Made by a program: the position numbers and the translations under genes. This document shows, one piece after another, positions 34,562 through 41,760 of a stretch of 64,000 bases of DNA. Origin of the DNA: an uncultured Gemmatimonadales bacterium (GTDB taxonomy: Bacteria > Gemmatimonadota > Gemmatimonadetes > Longimicrobiales > Gaopeijiaceae); assembly GCA_963809895.1 (NCBI GenBank), contig CAWELD010000010.1:1024001-1088000 (forward strand). Direction: 5' to 3'. Each line of letters begins with the position of its first letter. Position 1 is the stretch's first letter. The notes beneath the pieces are model-generated. The model saw only the letters and a program-made list of their open reading frames with translations, had not been told where the DNA came from and did no database searches.

Positions 34562-36247
34562 ATGACCGTGGGACTTCCCGCGGTGGAGCATAGACCGGGC
34601 CTCTTCCTGGGTGACGAGGCCGTCGCCCTGGGCGCGCTGCACGCGGGCATCTCCGCCGCCTACGCATATCCTGGCACACCATCCACCGAGATCTTCGAGT
34701 TCCTGTCGGCCGCCGCCAGGCACGACTCGAAGGTTGCCGCGCACTGGTGCGCCAACGAGAAGACCGCCCTGGAGCAGGCGCTGGGCGTGTCCATGATGAA
34801 CCGGCGGGTCCTCGTGTCCATGAAGCACGTGGGCCTGAACGTGGCCATGGATCCGTTCGTAAACGCCGCCCTCGTGGGAATCCGCGGCGGTCTGGTCCTG
34901 GCCGTGGCCGACGACCCGGGCATGCATTCATCGCAGAACGAGCAGGACAGCCGGATCCTGGCGGACTTCGCCCGCATTCCGATCCTGGAGCCCGCCGACC
35001 AGCAGGAGGCCTACGACATGACACGGGAGGCCTTCGAGCTGTCGGAGCGCTTCCAGGTGCCCGTGCTCGTTCGACTGGTCACCCGCCTCTGCCACAGCCG
35101 GGCCGCCCTCGAGACGGCTGCGCCCGCCCAGCAGCGACCTGCGGGCAAGGCGTCGGATCCTTCGGACTGGATCCTGCTGCCCGCGAACGCGCGCCGGCTG
35201 TGGAGGAACCACCTGGAGAAGCAGGAGGACCTTCTGGCGTGGTCGGAGGCCAGTGGCCACAACCGCGTCGAGCACGGCGGGGGCGAGGAGCTCGTCCCGC
35301 TCGGGGTGGTGACCACGGGGATCGCCCGGGGCTACCTCCTGGAGAACCTGTCCGACCTGACGGATCCGTACCTGCACCTCCACGTGGGCGCGTATCCGCT
35401 GCCGGTGGAGCGCATCCGGTCGTTCGCGGGCAGGGTCGAGCGCATCCTGGTGCTGGAGGAGGGATACCCGCACCTCGAGCGCCTGCTGCGCGGAATCCTG
35501 CCGACGACGGCGGAGGTGCGTGGACGCATGTCCGGTCATCTGCCCGCCGACGGCGAGCTGACGCCCGACACCGTGCGCCTGGGTCTGGGACTGGAGCCGA
35601 GGCCGGCCCAGAGCTACGGCGGCCCGGGGATTCCCGCACGTCCGCCCCAGCTCTGCCAGGGCTGTCCTCACCGGGACTCCTACGGCGCGGTGCTGGAAGC
35701 CATCCAGGACTTCGAGACCCCCGTGGTGACCGGCGACATCGGATGCTACACGCTGGGGGCGCTGTCGCCGTTCCGCGCCATCGAGTCGTGTGTGTGCATG
35801 GGTGCCAGCATCGGCATGGCCAAGGGCGTGTCCGATGCCGGTGTTCGTCCCGTGCTGGCCGTGATCGGCGATTCCACCTTCCTGCATTCGGGGGTCACCG
35901 CCCTCATGGACGCCGCGGCCCGCGACACCGATATGACCGTCCTCATCCTGGACAACGAGACGGTGGGCATGACGGGCCAGCAGGACACGGTGCTCCCGGA
36001 TTCCCGGATTCTCCCCATCGTGCTGGCGTTGGGAGTGGATCCCGCCCACGTGCACCAGGCCGAGGCCCATCCGCGCAAGACACAGGAGATGGCGGCCCTG
36101 CTCCGGAGAGAGATGGACCACCCGGGGCTGTCCGTGATCGTCGGCGTACGGGAGTGCATCGTCGCCGCACGCAAGCGCAAGGCCGAGATGAAACGCGCCG
36201 TCGACCAGCTCGTCGGCGCCGGCACAGCCAAGGAGAAAGAGCGTTGA
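34562..36247 (+). CDS. iorA: Indolepyruvate:ferredoxin oxidoreductase alpha subunit
   Basis: YPGTPSTEI, NEKTALE, MKHVGLNVA, DDPGMHSSQNEQD, RPPQLCQGCPH, GDIGCY, GDSTFLHSG. Confidence 0.94.
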   Translation: MTVGLPAVEHRPGLFLGDEAVALGALHAGISAAYAYPGTPSTEIFEFLSAAARHDSKVAAHWCANEKTALEQALGVSMMNRRVLVSMKHVGLNVAMDPFVNAALVGIRGGLVLAVADDPGMHSSQNEQDSRILADFARIPILEPADQQEAYDMTREAFELSERFQVPVLVRLVTRLCHSRAALETAAPAQQRPAGKASDPSDWILLPANARRLWRNHLEKQEDLLAWSEASGHNRVEHGGGEELVPLGVVTTGIARGYLLENLSDLTDPYLHLHVGAYPLPVERIRSFAGRVERILVLEEGYPHLERLLRGILPTTAEVRGRMSGHLPADGELTPDTVRLGLGLEPRPAQSYGGPGIPARPPQLCQGCPHRDSYGAVLEAIQDFETPVVTGDIGCYTLGALSPFRAIESCVCMGASIGMAKGVSDAGVRPVLAVIGDSTFLHSGVTALMDAAARDTDMTVLILDNETVGMTGQQDTVLPDSRILPIVLALGVDPAHVHQAEAHPRKTQEMAALLRREMDHPGLSVIVGVRECIVAARKRKAEMKRAVDQLVGAGTAKEKER

Positions 36248-36834
36248 AGACCGATGTGATCCTCGCCGGGGTGGGCGGCCAGGGCGTGTTGTCCGCCGCG
36301 GCCATCCTGGCCGAGACCGGGCTCCGTCAGGGGCTCCACGTGCGCCAGGGTGAGCTGCACGGCATGGCCCAGCGCGGCGGCGCCGTGCAGGCCTCGCTTC
36401 GCCTCTCGGACGAGGGCATTCCCAGCGACCTGGTGCCCCGGGGCGCCGCGACGCTGCTCCTGAGCATGGAGCCCCTGGAGGCGCTGCGATACGTGGATTG
36501 GCTGGCTCCCGACGGCGTTGTGCTGGCCGCGGCGGAGGCCTTCGAGAACATCCCGGACTATCCGTCGCTGGACGACGTGCACGCGCGCATCCGGACGCTT
36601 CCCGACGCCAGACTGGTCGAGGCGGGGCGGTTGGCGCGGGAGGCAGGCAACGCGCGTTCGGCGAACGTGGCCATGATCGGCGCCGCCATGCCCTTCCTGC
36701 CGCTGGACCCGACGCTGCTCCAGCGGGTGATCCGTGAGGCCTTCGCCGGCCGCGGTCCTCGGGTCGTGGAGGCGAACGTGGCCGCGTTCCTGGCCGGCAT
36801 GGACGCCGTGGCACCCGCGGCCGCGGTGGTGTGA
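36244..36834 (+). CDS. iorB: Indolepyruvate oxidoreductase beta subunit
   Basis: TTG start overlapping the iorA stop; AGVGGQG, ELHGMAQRGGAV, EPLEALR. Confidence 0.92.
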   Translation: MKTDVILAGVGGQGVLSAAAILAETGLRQGLHVRQGELHGMAQRGGAVQASLRLSDEGIPSDLVPRGAATLLLSMEPLEALRYVDWLAPDGVVLAAAEAFENIPDYPSLDDVHARIRTLPDARLVEAGRLAREAGNARSANVAMIGAAMPFLPLDPTLLQRVIREAFAGRGPRVVEANVAAFLAGMDAVAPAAAVV

Positions 36835-36835
36835 C

Positions 36836-39067
36836 ATGGCCGACGGCACGCTGATGGCGGCGCCGTCCGGCTCCCACATCGGGCCCACCGAGCTGATCGA
36901 ACGGGTCCGCGCACAGGGTCGGGCCGTCCTGGTCGAGGACGAAGCGCTCCTGCTGGCTGCCGGCCTGGGCCTGCGGACCCCGCGTCATCGGTCGGTGGTC
37001 GACGCCGCCGAGGCCCGGAGCCTGGAGCTCGCGAGCTTTCCCGGTAGCCACGTGGTCGTGAAGGTCCTGTCACCCCGCGTGCTCCACCGCAGCGACGTGG
37101 GAGCTGTACGGGTGGTGCCTCGTTGGGCCGACGAGGTCGCGTCGGCGGTGGCCGATCTGGAGCGCACCTTCGGCGGCGACGACGTGCGCTATCTCGTCGA
37201 GGAGCGGGTGGTGCGTGAAGCCCGTCCCGGAGACGAGCTTCTCCTGGGCATGCGCGTCACGCGGGAATTCGGACCCGTGGTCACCGTCGCTCCCGGAGGC
37301 CTGTTGGCCGAGACGCTCGCTCCGGCGCTGCGTCCCGACCAGGGGCCCGTCGTGTGGGCTCCGGACCTCGATCTGGAAGGCGCGCTCCGGCGCGAGCTGT
37401 CGAGGCGCCACTTCCTGGCGCCGGCGGTGGAGGGAGTCCGGGGACAGCCGCCGTTGCTCGGTCTGGACGCACTCGAGGCACTCGTGCGTCGCTTCGGCCA
37501 CCTCGCGCGGGAGCTGATGGCTGCGGGCGTGGGCGAGCTGGAGTTCAATCCCGTGCTCCTCACGCCCGAGGGTCCGTGGGCCGTGGACGGACTGGGGCGG
37601 CTCGGTGAGCCGGGAATTCTCGAGGAGGCTCGCCCGCCGCGGCCCGGGGCCGCAATCGGCGCCCTGCTGCGTCCGCGCTCCATCGCAGTCATGGGGGTCT
37701 CGGAGCGCATGAATCCGGGCCGCGTGATCCTGCGCAACATTCTCGAGGCCGGGTTCGACGCCGGGGCCGTGACCGTGGTGAAGCCGGGGGTCCGGGAGCT
37801 CGACGGCTGCCGATGCGTGGCCACGCTCTCGGACCTCCCGGAGCCTGTCGACCTCCTGGTGGTGAGCCTTGCCGCGGAGCAGGTGCCTCCGGTCCTGGAG
37901 GAGGTCACCGTCCGGGATCTCGCTGCCGCCGTCATCCTGGTCGCCGGCGGCATGGACGTGGACGGCCCCGGCGGCTCCCCGGCCCGGCAGGTCCGCCAGA
38001 TCCTCGACCGGGCACGGGCCAGCGGCGGAGGACCCGTGGTCAACGGTCCCAACTGCCTGGGCATTCGCTCGGTTCCGGGCGGCTACGACACGCTCTTCAT
38101 TCCGCGCCACAAGCTGCGCGTGTCGGACGGGGCGCCGGCGCCTGTCGCGGTGCTCAGCCAGAGCGGGGCGTTCGCCATCGCTCGCATGAGCCGTCTCCGC
38201 AACCTCAATCCGCGCTATGTCGTCACCCTCGGCAACCAGCTGGACCTGACGCTGGCCGACTATCTGGATCACCTCCTGGAGGATCCCGCGGTGGCTGTGG
38301 CCGCCTGCTACGTGGAGGGCTTCGTGCCCGGCGACGGCCGGGCGTTCCTGGCCTCGGCGAGACGGTGGTCGGAGGCCGGACGCCGCGTGCTCCTGTACCG
38401 GGCGGGCCGCAGCGAGGCCGGAGCCCGTGCGGCCGCGTCGCATACCGCCTCGGTGGCCGGGGACTACGCGGTGACCCGGGAGCTCTCCGGACTGGCAGGT
38501 GTCGAGGTCGCCCAGGACATCGAGGAATTCCAGGAACGCATGGCCGTCCTGGCCGCGTGGGCAGGGCGCGGGCCCGGGGGTCACCGGTTGGGCGTCGTCT
38601 CCAACGCCGGCTTCGAATGTGTGGCCATGGCCGACACCCTCGGCGGGCGCGAGCTGGCCGATCTGGCTCCCGCCACCCGGAGTGCGCTCGCGGACCTGCT
38701 GGCGGAAGCGCGCCTCGAGGAGATCGTGGGCGTCGCCAATCCCCTGGACGTCACGCCCATCATGAGTGACGCGGGCTTCGTGGAAGCCGCGCGCCTCGTG
38801 CTGGCCGATCCCGGTGTGGACGTGGGCCTGGTCGGTTGCGTGCCCCTGACGCCGGCCTTGCAGACGCTGGCGGCGTCCGGAGAGCACGCGGAGGACCATG
38901 TCGCCGCCGACTCGGTGGTCTCGGGGCTCGTCCGGTTGTGGAACGAGACGAGCAAGCCCTGGGCGGTGGTGGTGGACTCGGGGCCGGACTACGAGCCCAT
39001 GCGTCAAGCGCTGGAGCGGGCGGGAATCCCCGTACTCCGGAGCGCCAACGCGGCGCACCTCGGCTAA
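36836..39067 (+). CDS. ADP-forming acyl-CoA synthetase, beta(ATP-grasp)-alpha(CoA-binding) fusion
   Basis: VVVKVLS..LHRSDVGAV, ELEFNP, then PRSIAVMGVS, GPNCLG, SQSGA, ASHTAS (phospho-His), NPLD. Confidence 0.9.
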   Translation: MADGTLMAAPSGSHIGPTELIERVRAQGRAVLVEDEALLLAAGLGLRTPRHRSVVDAAEARSLELASFPGSHVVVKVLSPRVLHRSDVGAVRVVPRWADEVASAVADLERTFGGDDVRYLVEERVVREARPGDELLLGMRVTREFGPVVTVAPGGLLAETLAPALRPDQGPVVWAPDLDLEGALRRELSRRHFLAPAVEGVRGQPPLLGLDALEALVRRFGHLARELMAAGVGELEFNPVLLTPEGPWAVDGLGRLGEPGILEEARPPRPGAAIGALLRPRSIAVMGVSERMNPGRVILRNILEAGFDAGAVTVVKPGVRELDGCRCVATLSDLPEPVDLLVVSLAAEQVPPVLEEVTVRDLAAAVILVAGGMDVDGPGGSPARQVRQILDRARASGGGPVVNGPNCLGIRSVPGGYDTLFIPRHKLRVSDGAPAPVAVLSQSGAFAIARMSRLRNLNPRYVVTLGNQLDLTLADYLDHLLEDPAVAVAACYVEGFVPGDGRAFLASARRWSEAGRRVLLYRAGRSEAGARAAASHTASVAGDYAVTRELSGLAGVEVAQDIEEFQERMAVLAAWAGRGPGGHRLGVVSNAGFECVAMADTLGGRELADLAPATRSALADLLAEARLEEIVGVANPLDVTPIMSDAGFVEAARLVLADPGVDVGLVGCVPLTPALQTLAASGEHAEDHVAADSVVSGLVRLWNETSKPWAVVVDSGPDYEPMRQALERAGIPVLRSANAAHLG

Positions 39068-39591
39068 CCGTTACGGTCTACGTCCGTCGCGATAATTCCC
39101 GCCATCTCTTCCCACAACGGATCACACAGACCGGGTCGCTGCACCGCGGCCTGGAAGTCGTCGTGCTCCCGACGGTACATGCGCAAGAGATCCGCTCGCT
39201 CCCGCGCGACGCACGCCCTCAGATTGGCCAACCGGTCGGCGGCCTTCACGACCAGCGCCAGGTGGTGGCGGTCGGGAGCCGCCGCCAGACGCACCAGGGT
39301 ACGCGCCTTGCGCTCACGTCGATTCCGGCCCGGGCGGTCCGTGACCAGATCGACGCAGGCGGCGACCCGTGCGCCGAATCCATCCTCCACCTCCTCCAAC
39401 GACGTCTCGGTATCCTCGACGATGTCGTGCAGGTACGCCACGACGCGTGCCCGGTCGCCGTACTCCTCGACGAGCCGCGCGACGTCGTCGAGGTGCGCCG
39501 TGTAGGGGAGGTCGCCGTACTGTTGGTTGGCGTGGCGCTCGGCGGCCAGCGCACGGGCGCGAGCCACAGCTCCGGGATCGAGGTCGTTCAT
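39064..39591 (-). CDS. Stand-alone HD-domain protein of the (p)ppGpp hydrolase/Mesh1-like type
   Basis: H..Q...PY..HL, AYLHDIVEDT, FG..VA..V..VT, VKAADRLANL. Confidence 0.85.
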   Translation of the reverse strand: MNDLDPGAVARARALAAERHANQQYGDLPYTAHLDDVARLVEEYGDRARVVAYLHDIVEDTETSLEEVEDGFGARVAACVDLVTDRPGRNRRERKARTLVRLAAAPDRHHLALVVKAADRLANLRACVARERADLLRMYRREHDDFQAAVQRPGLCDPLWEEMAGIIATDVDRNG

Positions 39592-39725
39592 CCGGGGTCC
39601 GTCCGAATTTCGTCGGTGACGTGGATGGGAATACTGTGGTCCCACACCGGGCCCGGGAACCCCCGCCCTCGCTCCCGGTATTGGACGGGTCCTGCGGTAG
39701 GACCGACTTCAGCGAGGAGACCTGT

Positions 39726-40313
39726 ATGAAGCGTGTCGTCACGCTCGGCCTGCTCGCGGGAGCGCTCACCCTGGGTCTGCCGGCTCCGTCGGCTGCCCAG
39801 GAGGGATCGGACTTCCTCCCCGTGGGCGAGATGGCCCCCGACATCCAGGTCGTGGGTGCCACCCGCTACGGAGTCCTGGAGGAGCCGCTCCACCTGAGCG
39901 ACTTTCGCGGCGAGACCGTGGTTCTGGCTTTCTTCTTCCGCGCCCGATCGCGTGGGTGAACGGTGCAAATGCAGGCGTACCGTGATCAGTACGCGAGTCT
40001 TTTCCACGATGGCCAGAACGTGGTTCTCCTGGGCATCTCCAATGATTCCCCCGCAGAGCTGGCGTCCTGGGCCGAGGACGCCGACTTCCAGTTCCTGTTC
40101 GGCAGCGACTCCGAGGGTGCGGCCTACGCCGCCTTCGGTGGAGATCCCCGCGACGATGGGATGGTGGGGAGCCGGGCCGTGATCGTCGTCGATCCGGATG
40201 GTCGCATCGCCGAGGTCATCCCGCAGTTCAACCAGGTGGATCCGGCGGCCTACGAGCAGCTCGGCGCCGCCATCGACCGGGTGACCCCCGAGCCGGCGGG
40301 CGAGGACCGGTAG
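39726..40313 (+). CDS. Probable selenocysteine-containing secreted peroxiredoxin (AhpC/TSA, BCP-like), 195 aa, Sec at TGA 39957-39959
   Basis: GAGGAG RBS; signal peptide; VGEMAPD, LSDFRGETVVLAFF..SRG-TGA-TVQM continues in the same frame into VLLGISND, FLFGSD and RAVIVVDPDGRI. Confidence 0.82.
39960..39995 (+). promoter_or_regulatory. Candidate bacterial SECIS hairpin
   Basis: GCGTAC (39975-39980) / GTACGC (39989-39994) stem with a CGTGATCA loop starting 21 nt after the UGA. Confidence 0.55.
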
Positions 40314-40340
40314 AGGTCCGAGCCCACCGGTGCGGTCCAC

Positions 40341-40374
40341 CGAGGCCCGGCGCGGGAGACCGCGCCGGGCCTCG
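40341..40374. terminator. Perfect 15-bp hairpin with GAGA tetraloop between convergent genes
   Basis: CGAGGCCCGGCGCGG-GAGA-CCGCGCCGGGCCTCG. Confidence 0.75.
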
Positions 40375-40376
40375 TG

Positions 40377-40901
40377 TCATTGGGTGGCGAGCACCGCCCG
40401 CACCGCGCCCAGCAGATCCTGGTCGGCACCCACACCGGTGTAGGCTACACGTCCCTGGGCGTCGAGGATCACCACCACCGAGGTCGTGGGCGCCTTGAAG
40501 GCCCGCACCGCGTTGCCCTTGCCGTCCCACACGTAGGGATATCCCGGATCGTGATCCTCAACGTGGCGCCTGACCCGCCGCACCGACTGGGCGACGGCCA
40601 CGGCGACCGCCACGACGTTCATGCGGTCGCCGAATTCCGACTGGATCCGGTCCATCTGGGGCTGTAGTGCCTCGCACTTCTCGCACCAGGTGGCCCAGAA
40701 CTCCACCAGGGCCGGCTTACCCCGTGTGTAGTCCATCAGCTCCACCGCGTTGCCGTCCAGATCCTCGACAGACGCCGAGGGTGCCTGGGAGCCCAACGCC
40801 GGCCCCACCTCGCCGGAGGCCTGTGCACGCAGGGTTCCGGGCCCGGCGAGGGCCAGCAGAGCGATGAGGACGGAACCGCCGGATCGGAGTTGAGAGGTCA
40901 T
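40377..40901 (-). CDS. TlpA/ResA-like exported thioredoxin
   Basis: Signal peptide; LVEFWATWCEKC; ATGA overlap with the ccdA-like stop. Confidence 0.9.
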   Translation of the reverse strand: MTSQLRSGGSVLIALLALAGPGTLRAQASGEVGPALGSQAPSASVEDLDGNAVELMDYTRGKPALVEFWATWCEKCEALQPQMDRIQSEFGDRMNVVAVAVAVAQSVRRVRRHVEDHDPGYPYVWDGKGNAVRAFKAPTTSVVVILDAQGRVAYTGVGADQDLLGAVRAVLATQ

Positions 40902-41629
40902 AGGTTGTACCCTGCGATGACGAAGTAGTATTCGGCCATTCCGAGCATGATCAGCGCCCCGATCCGCTTGGCCCACAGCATCCACGCGCCGGAGCGGGGC
41001 AGCAGTGTGACGGCTCCCGCGAAGATTCCCACCACCGCCAGGAGCGCCGTCATGCCCAGCGAGAAGGCGAACAGATAGACGAACCCCATCAAGCCGGCCT
41101 GGGTGGTCGCCACCCAGGTGAGGACCACCGCGAACGCCGGTGCGCCACAGGGGGCTGCTACGATCCCCGAGCTCGCGCCCAGCAGGAACACGGCGCCGTA
41201 GGACCCGCCGCCCTGGCGGCCGGCCCACGCGAGCAGCCGCCGGGGCACGGGCATGGGAATGACGTCGAGCATGATCAGCGCGAACAGCACCAGGACGTTG
41301 CCGATGGCGAACCTCACCCACGGGTTGGCGCTCACCGTGCCGAAGAGGGTGCCCGTGAGCCCGGCGAGGAGGCCCAGGAAGGCGTAGAGCAGTGCCATGC
41401 CCAGCACGTACGTCAGGGTCAGCGCCACCGTGCGCGCCCTGGTCTGCCGTTCCTGCGCCGTGCAGGTGATCACCGACGCGGTGATGGGAATCATGGGGTA
41501 GACGCAGGGCGTGAGGCTCGTCAGCACCCCGGCTCCGAAGAGCGTGGCGATGGCCACGAGGGGGCTCGCCGAGAGCGTCTGTGAGAGTCCGCCGGCGGAC
41601 TCGGCCTGGATCAGCGCGAAGAGGGTCAT
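40898..41629 (-). CDS. CcdA / DsbD transmembrane-domain electron transporter
   Basis: SLTPCVYPMIP, YVLGMA, AAPCGAP, LPRSGAWM. Confidence 0.9.
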   Translation of the reverse strand: MTLFALIQAESAGGLSQTLSASPLVAIATLFGAGVLTSLTPCVYPMIPITASVITCTAQERQTRARTVALTLTYVLGMALLYAFLGLLAGLTGTLFGTVSANPWVRFAIGNVLVLFALIMLDVIPMPVPRRLLAWAGRQGGGSYGAVFLLGASSGIVAAPCGAPAFAVVLTWVATTQAGLMGFVYLFAFSLGMTALLAVVGIFAGAVTLLPRSGAWMLWAKRIGALIMLGMAEYYFVIAGYNL

Positions 41630-41760
41630 GTCGGGCCCCTCCAACCCCCGCGGACCGCGGGAGGTTCCTGTTGGCGGTCACGGCATCCTTGATGCGTCGA
41701 GGGCCGAGCGCCCATGTTGCGCCACCAGCACGGAGGCTCCCCCCGGAACGAGAGGTTCCC

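Follow-up and report, generated by a model that had tools for sequence, protein, structure and literature searches.

The locus described here lies in a 64,000-nucleotide stretch of DNA, which is called the window. It raises the question of whether two adjacent open reading frames are the remains of a broken gene or one gene in which an in-frame TGA encodes selenocysteine (Sec), as an earlier note had proposed, and what the product of such a gene might do. With genetic code table 11, the first open reading frame ends at 39959 and the second begins at 39963, in one frame. Translation of 39726-40313 with TGA as U confirmed that a lone TGA at codon 78 separates the two fragments, and gave a 195-residue product with U78 (39957-39959) as the single recoded codon, in the context FFFRARSRG-U-TVQM. 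The other features claimed for the joined protein, a predicted signal peptide (recognized by eye as a basic and then a hydrophobic stretch that ends in SAA before Gln25), a later conserved arginine (Arg150, in SRAVIVVD) and the absence of cysteine from all 195 residues, were likewise found in the translation. The match to the Pfam family AhpC-TSA spans the TGA and covers residues 33-163 of the Sec-peroxiredoxin (E 3.5e-20). Judged from the sequence, 39726-40313 is one intact gene, not two fragments. The features of the gene and its surroundings are the following:

39714..39719, + strand: Shine-Dalgarno-like GAGGAG, 6 nt 5' of the ATG; homologues begin at the equivalent Met
39726..40313, + strand: predicted Sec-peroxiredoxin gene, 195 codons plus TAG (AhpC-TSA E 3.5e-20, BCP/AhpE fold)
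39726..39797, + strand: predicted signal peptide, residues 1-24, cleavage SAA/Q25 (read by eye; by a heuristic in homologues)
39936..39938, + strand: Phe71, at the Pro position of PxxxT/SxxC (by alignment to the Pro of solved BCPs)
39948..39950, + strand: Ser75, at the motif Thr/Ser (T 261, S 14, G 5 in 280 Sec copies)
39957..39959, + strand: TGA, predicted Sec78, at the peroxidatic Cys position (by alignment; the same in RNA contig X1)
39975..39994, + strand: putative SECIS hairpin with 6-bp stem and 8-nt loop CGUGAUCA, the loop 21 nt after the UGA (by conservation)
40173..40175, + strand: Arg150, the conserved catalytic Arg of peroxiredoxins (aligned with solved BCPs; invariant in alignment A1)
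40341..40374, no strand: inverted repeat with a perfect 15-bp match, lying between the two convergent stop codons; likely terminator for both directions
40377..40901, - strand: exported TlpA/ResA-like thioredoxin of 174 aa with the motif WCEKC, candidate reductant (by profile matches and synteny)
40898..41644, - strand: CcdA-type membrane electron transporter (DsbD_TM E 6.7e-45), its stop overlapping the tlpA start (ATGA)

An Rfam search of the region gave three matches, each of them far under the gathering score and located on the terminator-like repeat.

The TGA was found unchanged in RNA-derived data. Contig X1 from a sediment metatranscriptome corresponds to window positions 39702-40320, where it ends, with zero differences; it may derive from the genome's own sample, and such contigs give neither strand nor level. 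The genome holds the machinery for Sec insertion, with selA, selB and selD above cut-offs and a tRNA-Sec, and its selD itself carries an in-frame TGA.

Homologous loci were drawn from relatives and from genome and metagenome collections (the best 80 of 479 and of 487 confirmed candidates). Other regions were hand-picked for range and for Cys enrichment, so that the ratio of Sec to Cys copies should not be taken as their proportion in the population. The 333 aligned copies reduced to 315 distinct DNA copies from Gemmatimonadota. At the column of the TGA, 280 of these had TGA, 32 TGC and 3 TGT, and nothing else occurred. Homology extends to both sides of the TGA (median identity 0.72 before and 0.61 after). 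Annotation pipelines do split the gene, as had been foreseen: among the best 120 public protein matches, most were C-terminal halves of 109-119 residues, and N-terminal halves of 79-88 residues that stop at the motif Gly are also present in public proteins.

The codon state went together with selA. Among 80 hand-chosen genomes, selA was present in all 45 with a TGA copy versus 4 of the 35 that were Cys-only, the Cys state of 10 of the 35 being taken from a match free of stops and not from fetched DNA. Three of the four selA-bearing exceptions had a weak or distant match only, and their Sec copy may be unassembled; genome G026 carries selA and yet has a close Cys orthologue. Of the 301 genomes sampled from all over the phylum Gemmatimonadota, 242 had a match at E 1e-25 or better, a tally that includes one genome flagged as unpublished (G191).

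Gene callers do split this open reading frame, and Met82 could initiate a product of 114 residues, as might be expected if this were a pseudogene, a sequencing error or a pair of small genes. However, the same TGA recurs in 280 distinct copies with conserved flanks, the break falls within the fold, at the catalytic residue, and Met82 is not invariant. In addition, the RNA contig matches the window exactly, and the codon state goes together with selA. We regard these explanations as already refuted by the comparative data, with a negligible residual probability.

An in-frame TGA inside a conserved gene could also mean that TGA is reassigned throughout the genome (to Trp or Gly) or read through with another amino acid, but this is extremely improbable. 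TGA is an ordinary stop in this genome, because the neighbouring tlpA gene terminates with one (40377-40379), at the place where tlpA homologues end. Many relatives close the Sec-peroxiredoxin gene itself with TGA, the sole tRNA found with a UCA anticodon is tRNA-Sec (tRNA-Trp has CCA), and the column is Cys in every DNA copy that lacks TGA. The proposed reading as a selenoprotein with UGA at the peroxidatic site is thus supported by the RNA contig, the sel genes and the TGA/Cys column. UGA78 is almost certainly decoded as Sec, with SelB and Sec-tRNA binding the hairpin at 39975-39994.

This hairpin has a GCGTAC/GTACGC stem (39975-39980/39989-39994), the loop CGTGATCA with G in second position, and an energy of -8.7 kcal/mol. 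The 6-bp stem and the second-position G were correctly described in the earlier note, but the 21 nt given there as the distance to the hairpin is the distance from TGA to loop; the stem begins 15 nt after the TGA. With 8 nt in the loop, 6 bp in the stem, G second, 21 nt to the UGA and -8.7 kcal/mol, the hairpin lies within the bacterial SECIS consensus as given in a 2026 review, which specifies a loop of 3-9 nt, a stem of 4-16 bp, a G among the first two loop nucleotides, a UGA-to-loop distance of 16-37 nt and a minimum free energy of at most -7.5 kcal/mol (PMC13188914).

Energy as proof of a SECIS element was dropped, since it was not significant in context (z = -2.0 for the hairpin alone, +0.4 within 60 nt) and a similar loose hairpin follows 3065 of the 104196 TGA trinucleotides in the genome (about 3%). 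A genome-wide hairpin scan for more selenoproteins was also abandoned, because chance matches swamped the signal. It is conservation, not energy, that raises the hairpin above chance. The 20-mer is exact in 265 of the 280 Sec copies and the remaining 15 vary in the loop only, the stem being whole in all 280; none of the 35 Cys copies contains the exact 20-mer, even those encoding the same residues. After dereplication at 82% protein identity (134 Sec copies), the codons beneath the hairpin were GCG in 134, TAC in 134, CGT in 130, GAT in 129 and TAC in 134, compared with 41% for GCG, 6% for CGT and 29% for GAT elsewhere in the same genes. In these 134 copies, the first base outside the stem (codon position) varied freely. 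The sole change in the Arg codon under the hairpin is GU to GG, so that the loop opens with C-G-U or C-G-G, in agreement with the bacterial SECIS loop rule G[G/U] (PMC13188914).

The six stem pairs never vary, and therefore show no covariation among themselves. Flanking the stem, the pair +17/+38 was Watson-Crick in 75 of 134 Sec copies (C-G 33, G-C 31, U-A 10), compared with a mean of 28 and a maximum of 40 in shuffles, and in 14 of 35 Cys copies versus 13 expected; this count takes no account of relatedness, the most frequent single state is A-A, and in the window's own copy the two positions do not pair. Columns +15/+40 were also slightly above their shuffles in Sec copies. Covariation in the hand-picked 27-row alignment A2, with five Cys rows, was borderline (19-23 of 500 shuffles), and the count over 134 rows tests it more strongly. 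In three genomes (L311-L313), tandem Cys and Sec paralogues show the difference in the hairpin between Cys and Sec copies within one locus. The gene also offers a compact 20-nt SECIS with a negative control built in.

SECIS remnants in Cys copies were considered as proof of reversion and rejected, as CGT (3 of 35) and GAT (6 of 35) were not above background. We also noted that the Gln codon in the spacer (window 39966-39968, +3) is CAA in 97 of 134 Sec copies versus 9% elsewhere and 4 of 35 Cys copies, which we read as a further RNA-level constraint between UGA and hairpin.

What kind of protein does the gene encode? Alignment with solved BCPs places U78 at the peroxidatic Cys, Ser75 at the motif Thr/Ser, Phe71 at the motif Pro and Arg150 at the conserved Arg. 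An AlphaFold model, made with Cys for Sec from a 14-row alignment, had a mean pLDDT of 86.6 (residues 1-26 below 50), and BCP and AhpE were its best matches in a structural search. The solved BCP/PrxQ and AhpE structures (3hjp, 2ywn, 5epf, 1xvw) have the same fold (TM to target about 0.84) at about 25% identity; the window protein differs from them in the replaced Pro and the signal peptide. AhpE, too, is of the one-Cys type. Thr or Ser occupies the motif position in 275 of the 280 Sec copies (PF00578 domain, T/SxxU). The score was below the cut-off both for the BCP equivalog model NF006960 (55.4 bits, cut-off 140) and for the PrxU model NF040737 (28.9 bits, cut-off 270). PrxU of Eubacterium acidaminophilum, the reference bacterial Sec-peroxiredoxin, shares Sec at the peroxidatic position, but by model score it belongs to a different subfamily. 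We place the window protein in the TxxU class of Sec-peroxiredoxins, outside the strict PxxxT/SxxC definition of BCP/PrxQ. It had been called peroxiredoxin-like with a divergent motif. The fold, Ser75, Arg150 and the replacement of Pro by Phe bear this out, but the divergence is not a quirk of this copy; it is a family-wide trait that tracks Sec versus Cys.

TxxU Sec-peroxiredoxins (PF00578/COG1225) are a long-catalogued class (PMC1088965, PMC1794560, PMC2398784, PMC13188914). Those reported from the Sargasso Sea and GOS data share the peroxidatic UGA, T/SxxU, Cys homologues and a bacterial SECIS (PMC1088965, PMC2398784). The same motif and hairpin occur in close relatives listed in both surveys: AACY01587908, from the 2005 Sargasso Sea supplement, JCVI_READ_1288519 and JCVI_READ_1095898793142. 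As deposited, these relatives are N-terminally truncated, begin at an internal Met and do not include the signal peptide of the window protein. Signal-peptide-like N-termini are found in other GOS Sec-peroxiredoxins too, so that export is not unique. The selenoprotein is therefore hidden in the sense that public proteins are split, as the earlier note had it, but the subfamily is not undiscovered, given its relative in the 2005 supplement; later selenoproteome surveys may list the family in their supplements.

Term searches found no mention of export or the periplasm for these Sec-peroxiredoxins in the main texts of the Sargasso and GOS papers (PMC1088965, PMC2398784), and none of Gemmatimonadota in the searched text of the GOS paper (PMC2398784) and the 2026 review (PMC13188914). 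Literature searches, with few subscription journals covered, found no paper on a Gemmatimonadota Sec-peroxiredoxin or on Pro loss in Sec-peroxiredoxins. Calling the protein a selenoprotein is in itself unremarkable; what merits experiment is the repeated coupling of a motif residue to Sec or Cys.

In Cys peroxiredoxins, the motif Pro packs beside the catalytic sulfur. It has been called absolutely conserved in BCP/PrxQ (PMC3322552), and its proximity to the catalytic residue has been noted (PMC7231847). For Sec-peroxiredoxins, PxxxTxxU has been called highly conserved (PMC13188914), yet the family of the window protein has Phe or Tyr. At the Pro column, 272 of the 280 Sec copies have a residue other than Pro (Phe 211, Tyr 56, Ile 4, Val 1) and 8 have Pro, versus Pro in all 35 distinct Cys copies. 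In a set of 120 database proteins of at least 150 residues, the Cys motif could be scored in 118, of which 117 had Pro, the exception being P0002 with Phe; two Phe proteins of the same set carry Leu or Trp at the catalytic column. Distant representatives had Pro in 86 of 92 Cys motifs. Two Cys proteins break the rule by carrying Phe, namely P0002 and P0260, the latter a fragment.

A tree was built from 207 dereplicated rows (of 429) on 150 columns, after masking of the Pro and catalytic columns and of the seven residues encoded by the SECIS; 95 of its 204 branches had less than 80% support. On this tree, Sec/Cys required 17 changes and Pro/non-Pro 16. Eight independent Sec/Cys pairs were on strong branches, and on average 5.9 of them differed in Pro the same way, 0 the opposite way and 2.1 showed no difference (sign test p 0.031, range to 0.063). 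A tree with a single Sec clade was rejected (p-AU 6e-49, 34 hand-picked rows). The Pro and Sec/Cys states thus switch together repeatedly on the tree. Genus g86 has Sec-Tyr and Cys-Pro copies in one clade (99/95), and genus g36 has Sec-Pro copies in selA genomes and Cys-Pro copies in genomes without selA, which suggests Sec-Pro as a stepping stone.

The sharing of one identical SECIS by all Sec copies speaks for Sec having arisen once and Cys having been regained repeatedly, chiefly in genomes that have lost selA; the change counts themselves give no direction. Exchange of the active-site segment between copies may be an alternative source of the pattern. Repeated Sec-to-Cys loss with convergent changes in the catalytic domain is known for GPX6 of mammals, a different enzyme family, in which the classic activity was lost (PMC10958145). 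Unlike in GPX6, one defined motif residue switches in the family studied here, in many bacterial lineages and with natural intermediates.

We also inspected by eye parts 18-19 (of 59) of the GOS sequence file (PMC2398784), in which 114 of 130 scoreable Sec-peroxiredoxins keep Pro and 3 entries were unscoreable. Since most keep it, Sec does not require Pro loss. The 16 entries without Pro comprise two of the window's family and unrelated groups (Thr, Ser, Ile, Tyr, Phe, Leu), some of them perhaps read errors. The unrelated groups, which include a phosphatase-fused form, hint at a general relaxation of the need for Pro with Sec. Sec thus seems to relax this need, and the window's family seems to have gone further, fixing an aromatic residue.

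The coupling is an observed pattern; that selenium chemistry is its catalytic cause is the explanation towards which we lean. Selenium chemistry would lift the need for the motif Pro, an aromatic residue would be favoured, and lineages that lose the Sec machinery would return to Cys plus Pro. The reason for the aromatic residue is speculative. Glutathione peroxidases shield oxidised Sec as a reversible Se-N bond (PMC8533274). One tentative and rather doubtful idea is that the family has a distinct selenium-adapted active site, in which Phe or Tyr would provide a ring and a free backbone N-H beside Se, so that the Cys-free enzyme could park its oxidised form (for example as Se-N) in the oxidising periplasm until TlpA arrives. 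Sec-Phe and Cys-Pro would then be two epistatic optima between which the family has shifted repeatedly by way of Sec-Pro and the rare Cys-Phe, intermediates still found in nature.

Alternatively, the switch might serve translation, if Pro seven residues before the UGA, or a Pro codon, lowered Sec insertion. During decoding of the UGA, that residue would sit inside the exit tunnel of the ribosome, and other spacer codons are biased too (CAA at +3, 97 of 134 copies versus 9% background). This explanation is nevertheless unlikely. Varied codons are tolerated at the position (TTC, TAC, TTT, TAT, ATC), most other Sec-peroxiredoxins retain Pro at the same spacing, and the need of the Cys copies for Pro would be left unexplained. 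A conserved RNA helix 5' of the UGA, which could have accounted for the Phe codon, was unsupported in the 134 Sec copies; mean pair probability there was 0.4 or less, and the consensus fold contained the SECIS only.

All four states exist in nature: Sec-Phe/Tyr and Cys-Pro are common, Sec-Pro was found in 8 copies and Cys-Phe is rare. A small soluble protein with all four would permit a direct four-way kinetic comparison, which bears on the long-standing question of why some enzymes use Sec and their orthologues Cys. As to copy number, three genomes of one genus have tandem Cys-Pro and Sec-Pro paralogues (L311-L313), possibly a selenium-independent backup, and L068, L084 and L196 each have two Sec copies inside one locus.

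The remaining question is where the protein acts and what reduces it. A heuristic for signal peptides (basic n-region plus hydrophobic h-region) was positive for 114 of 122 full-length Sec copies, and 111 of the 122 had small-x-small followed by Gln at the predicted cleavage site. The signal peptide very probably directs export of the chain, with cleavage before Gln25. The Gln after the predicted cleavage site (window 39798-39800), and a Gln after the Ala-rich c-region of the TlpA neighbour, recall the pyroglutamate Q-rule of Bacteroidota.

No Cys was found within 50 residues before the TGA or anywhere after it in the first 179 Sec copies; two Sec copies sampled later have one Cys each, far downstream of the TGA. 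Since the protein has no Cys, it would have no resolving residue, and a partner dithiol would have to reduce the oxidised Sec. The TlpA/ResA-like neighbour has a CxxC motif and its own signal or anchor, and lies on the opposite strand beyond the 15-bp inverted repeat. Of the 242 Sec copies with 1300 nt or more of flank, 155 have a tlpA gene next to them, downstream and in convergent orientation, these copies falling in genome families f1 and f3-f8. A CcdA-type gene was present in 154 of the 269 loci for which 1300 nt or more of downstream sequence was available. None of 33 Cys copies has tlpA in this position, an absence that is confounded with family; upstream, tlpA accompanies two distant Cys paralogues (L329 and L330).

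A precedent comes from Caulobacter, where electrons pass from ScsB to TlpA and on to the periplasmic peroxiredoxin PprX (PMC3322552). PprX of Caulobacter crescentus is an exported protein of BCP/PrxQ type served by a TlpA-like protein and a DsbD-family transporter; for the window protein, TlpA and the CcdA-type transporter are candidates for these roles. PprX has Cys at the peroxidatic position, a second Cys and the complete PxxxTxxC and is fed by ScsB (PMC3322552), whereas the window protein has Sec, no Cys and no Pro, and a CcdA-sized transporter adjoins it. By synteny and this precedent, the neighbouring TlpA is a reasonably likely reductant, which CcdA would recharge from cytoplasmic thioredoxin.

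Pairs of ccdA and tlpA commonly serve cytochrome c maturation, and the linkage might be merely inherited gene order, with another thioredoxin-like protein or a small thiol recycling the enzyme. The genes are convergent with a strong hairpin between them, no neighbouring tlpA turned up for 87 of 242 Sec copies or for 31 of 33 Cys copies, and the whole genome has 10 AhpC-TSA and 3 DsbD_TM matches above cut-off, all of which leaves room for a different reductant. However, the linkage persists across several genome families, whereas the other neighbours tested, the HD protein and the acyl-CoA ligase, were found only in the window's own locus among the loci compared. The same pair also stands beside the distant Cys paralogues L329 and L330, and TlpA does reduce PprX in Caulobacter (PMC3322552). 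A reductant other than TlpA is thus possible but the less probable choice.

With TlpA as the favoured partner, a catalytic cycle can be outlined. From the chemistry of the family, it is quite probable that the selenolate of Sec78, assisted by Ser75 and Arg150, would reduce H2O2 or organic peroxides and be converted to the selenenic acid. A partner dithiol, likely that of TlpA, would then reduce oxidised Sec78 and be recharged by CcdA from cytoplasmic thioredoxin.

With the motif Pro missing, peroxidase activity should not be taken for granted. The protein, whose score is also far under the BCP cut-off, could be a genuine exported selenoprotein that is not mainly a peroxidase, but a redox relay, a sensor or a reductant of another envelope substrate. 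The family-specific RxRT and TxQM residues would fit such a role, and PrxL of Caulobacter, which appears to act in such a way, showed no peroxidase activity (PMC3322552). PrxL, however, has neither the Thr/Ser nor the Arg (PMC3322552), both of which are retained here, and orthologous Cys forms bear the full PxxxTxxC plus Arg. Moreover, Sec and Cys states interchange within genera, which suggests one function. We consider a mainly non-peroxidatic role improbable. The best model overall, and taken as a whole a probable one, is that of a one-Sec peroxidase in the periplasm that is kept reduced through CcdA and TlpA. If so, annotations of Gemmatimonadota lack what is likely a major defence of the envelope against peroxide, since its gene is routinely annotated as two fragments.

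Several further observations were made in the window and the genome. Upstream of the peroxiredoxin and divergent from it, window 39064-39645 (-) encodes a free-standing HD-domain protein that resembles the hydrolase domain of RelA/SpoT and was found beside the peroxiredoxin in no other locus. Window 34562-39067 (+) carries genes resembling indolepyruvate:ferredoxin oxidoreductase subunits, then an ADP-forming acyl-CoA ligase, an ordinary catabolic cluster. Copies 65-67% identical to the query were found in records titled archaeon or Gammaproteobacteria (L074, L079, L083, L085), and these records are probably mislabelled or come from mixed bins. Locus L004 (G000:C3:232157-233324, +) gave a translation-GTPase match that looks like a second EF-Tu copy; it is in two pieces with an in-frame TAG and is either a broken copy or an assembly error. 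At G000:C10:356346-358464 (+), 17 tRNA genes lie within about 2.1 kb. Finally, the genome has a second AhpC-TSA-family gene with an in-frame TGA (L048, G000:C3:2553007-2553384, -), in UxxC context and with a G-loop hairpin downstream; by these marks, it is a peroxiredoxin-like selenoprotein of the known UxxC kind.
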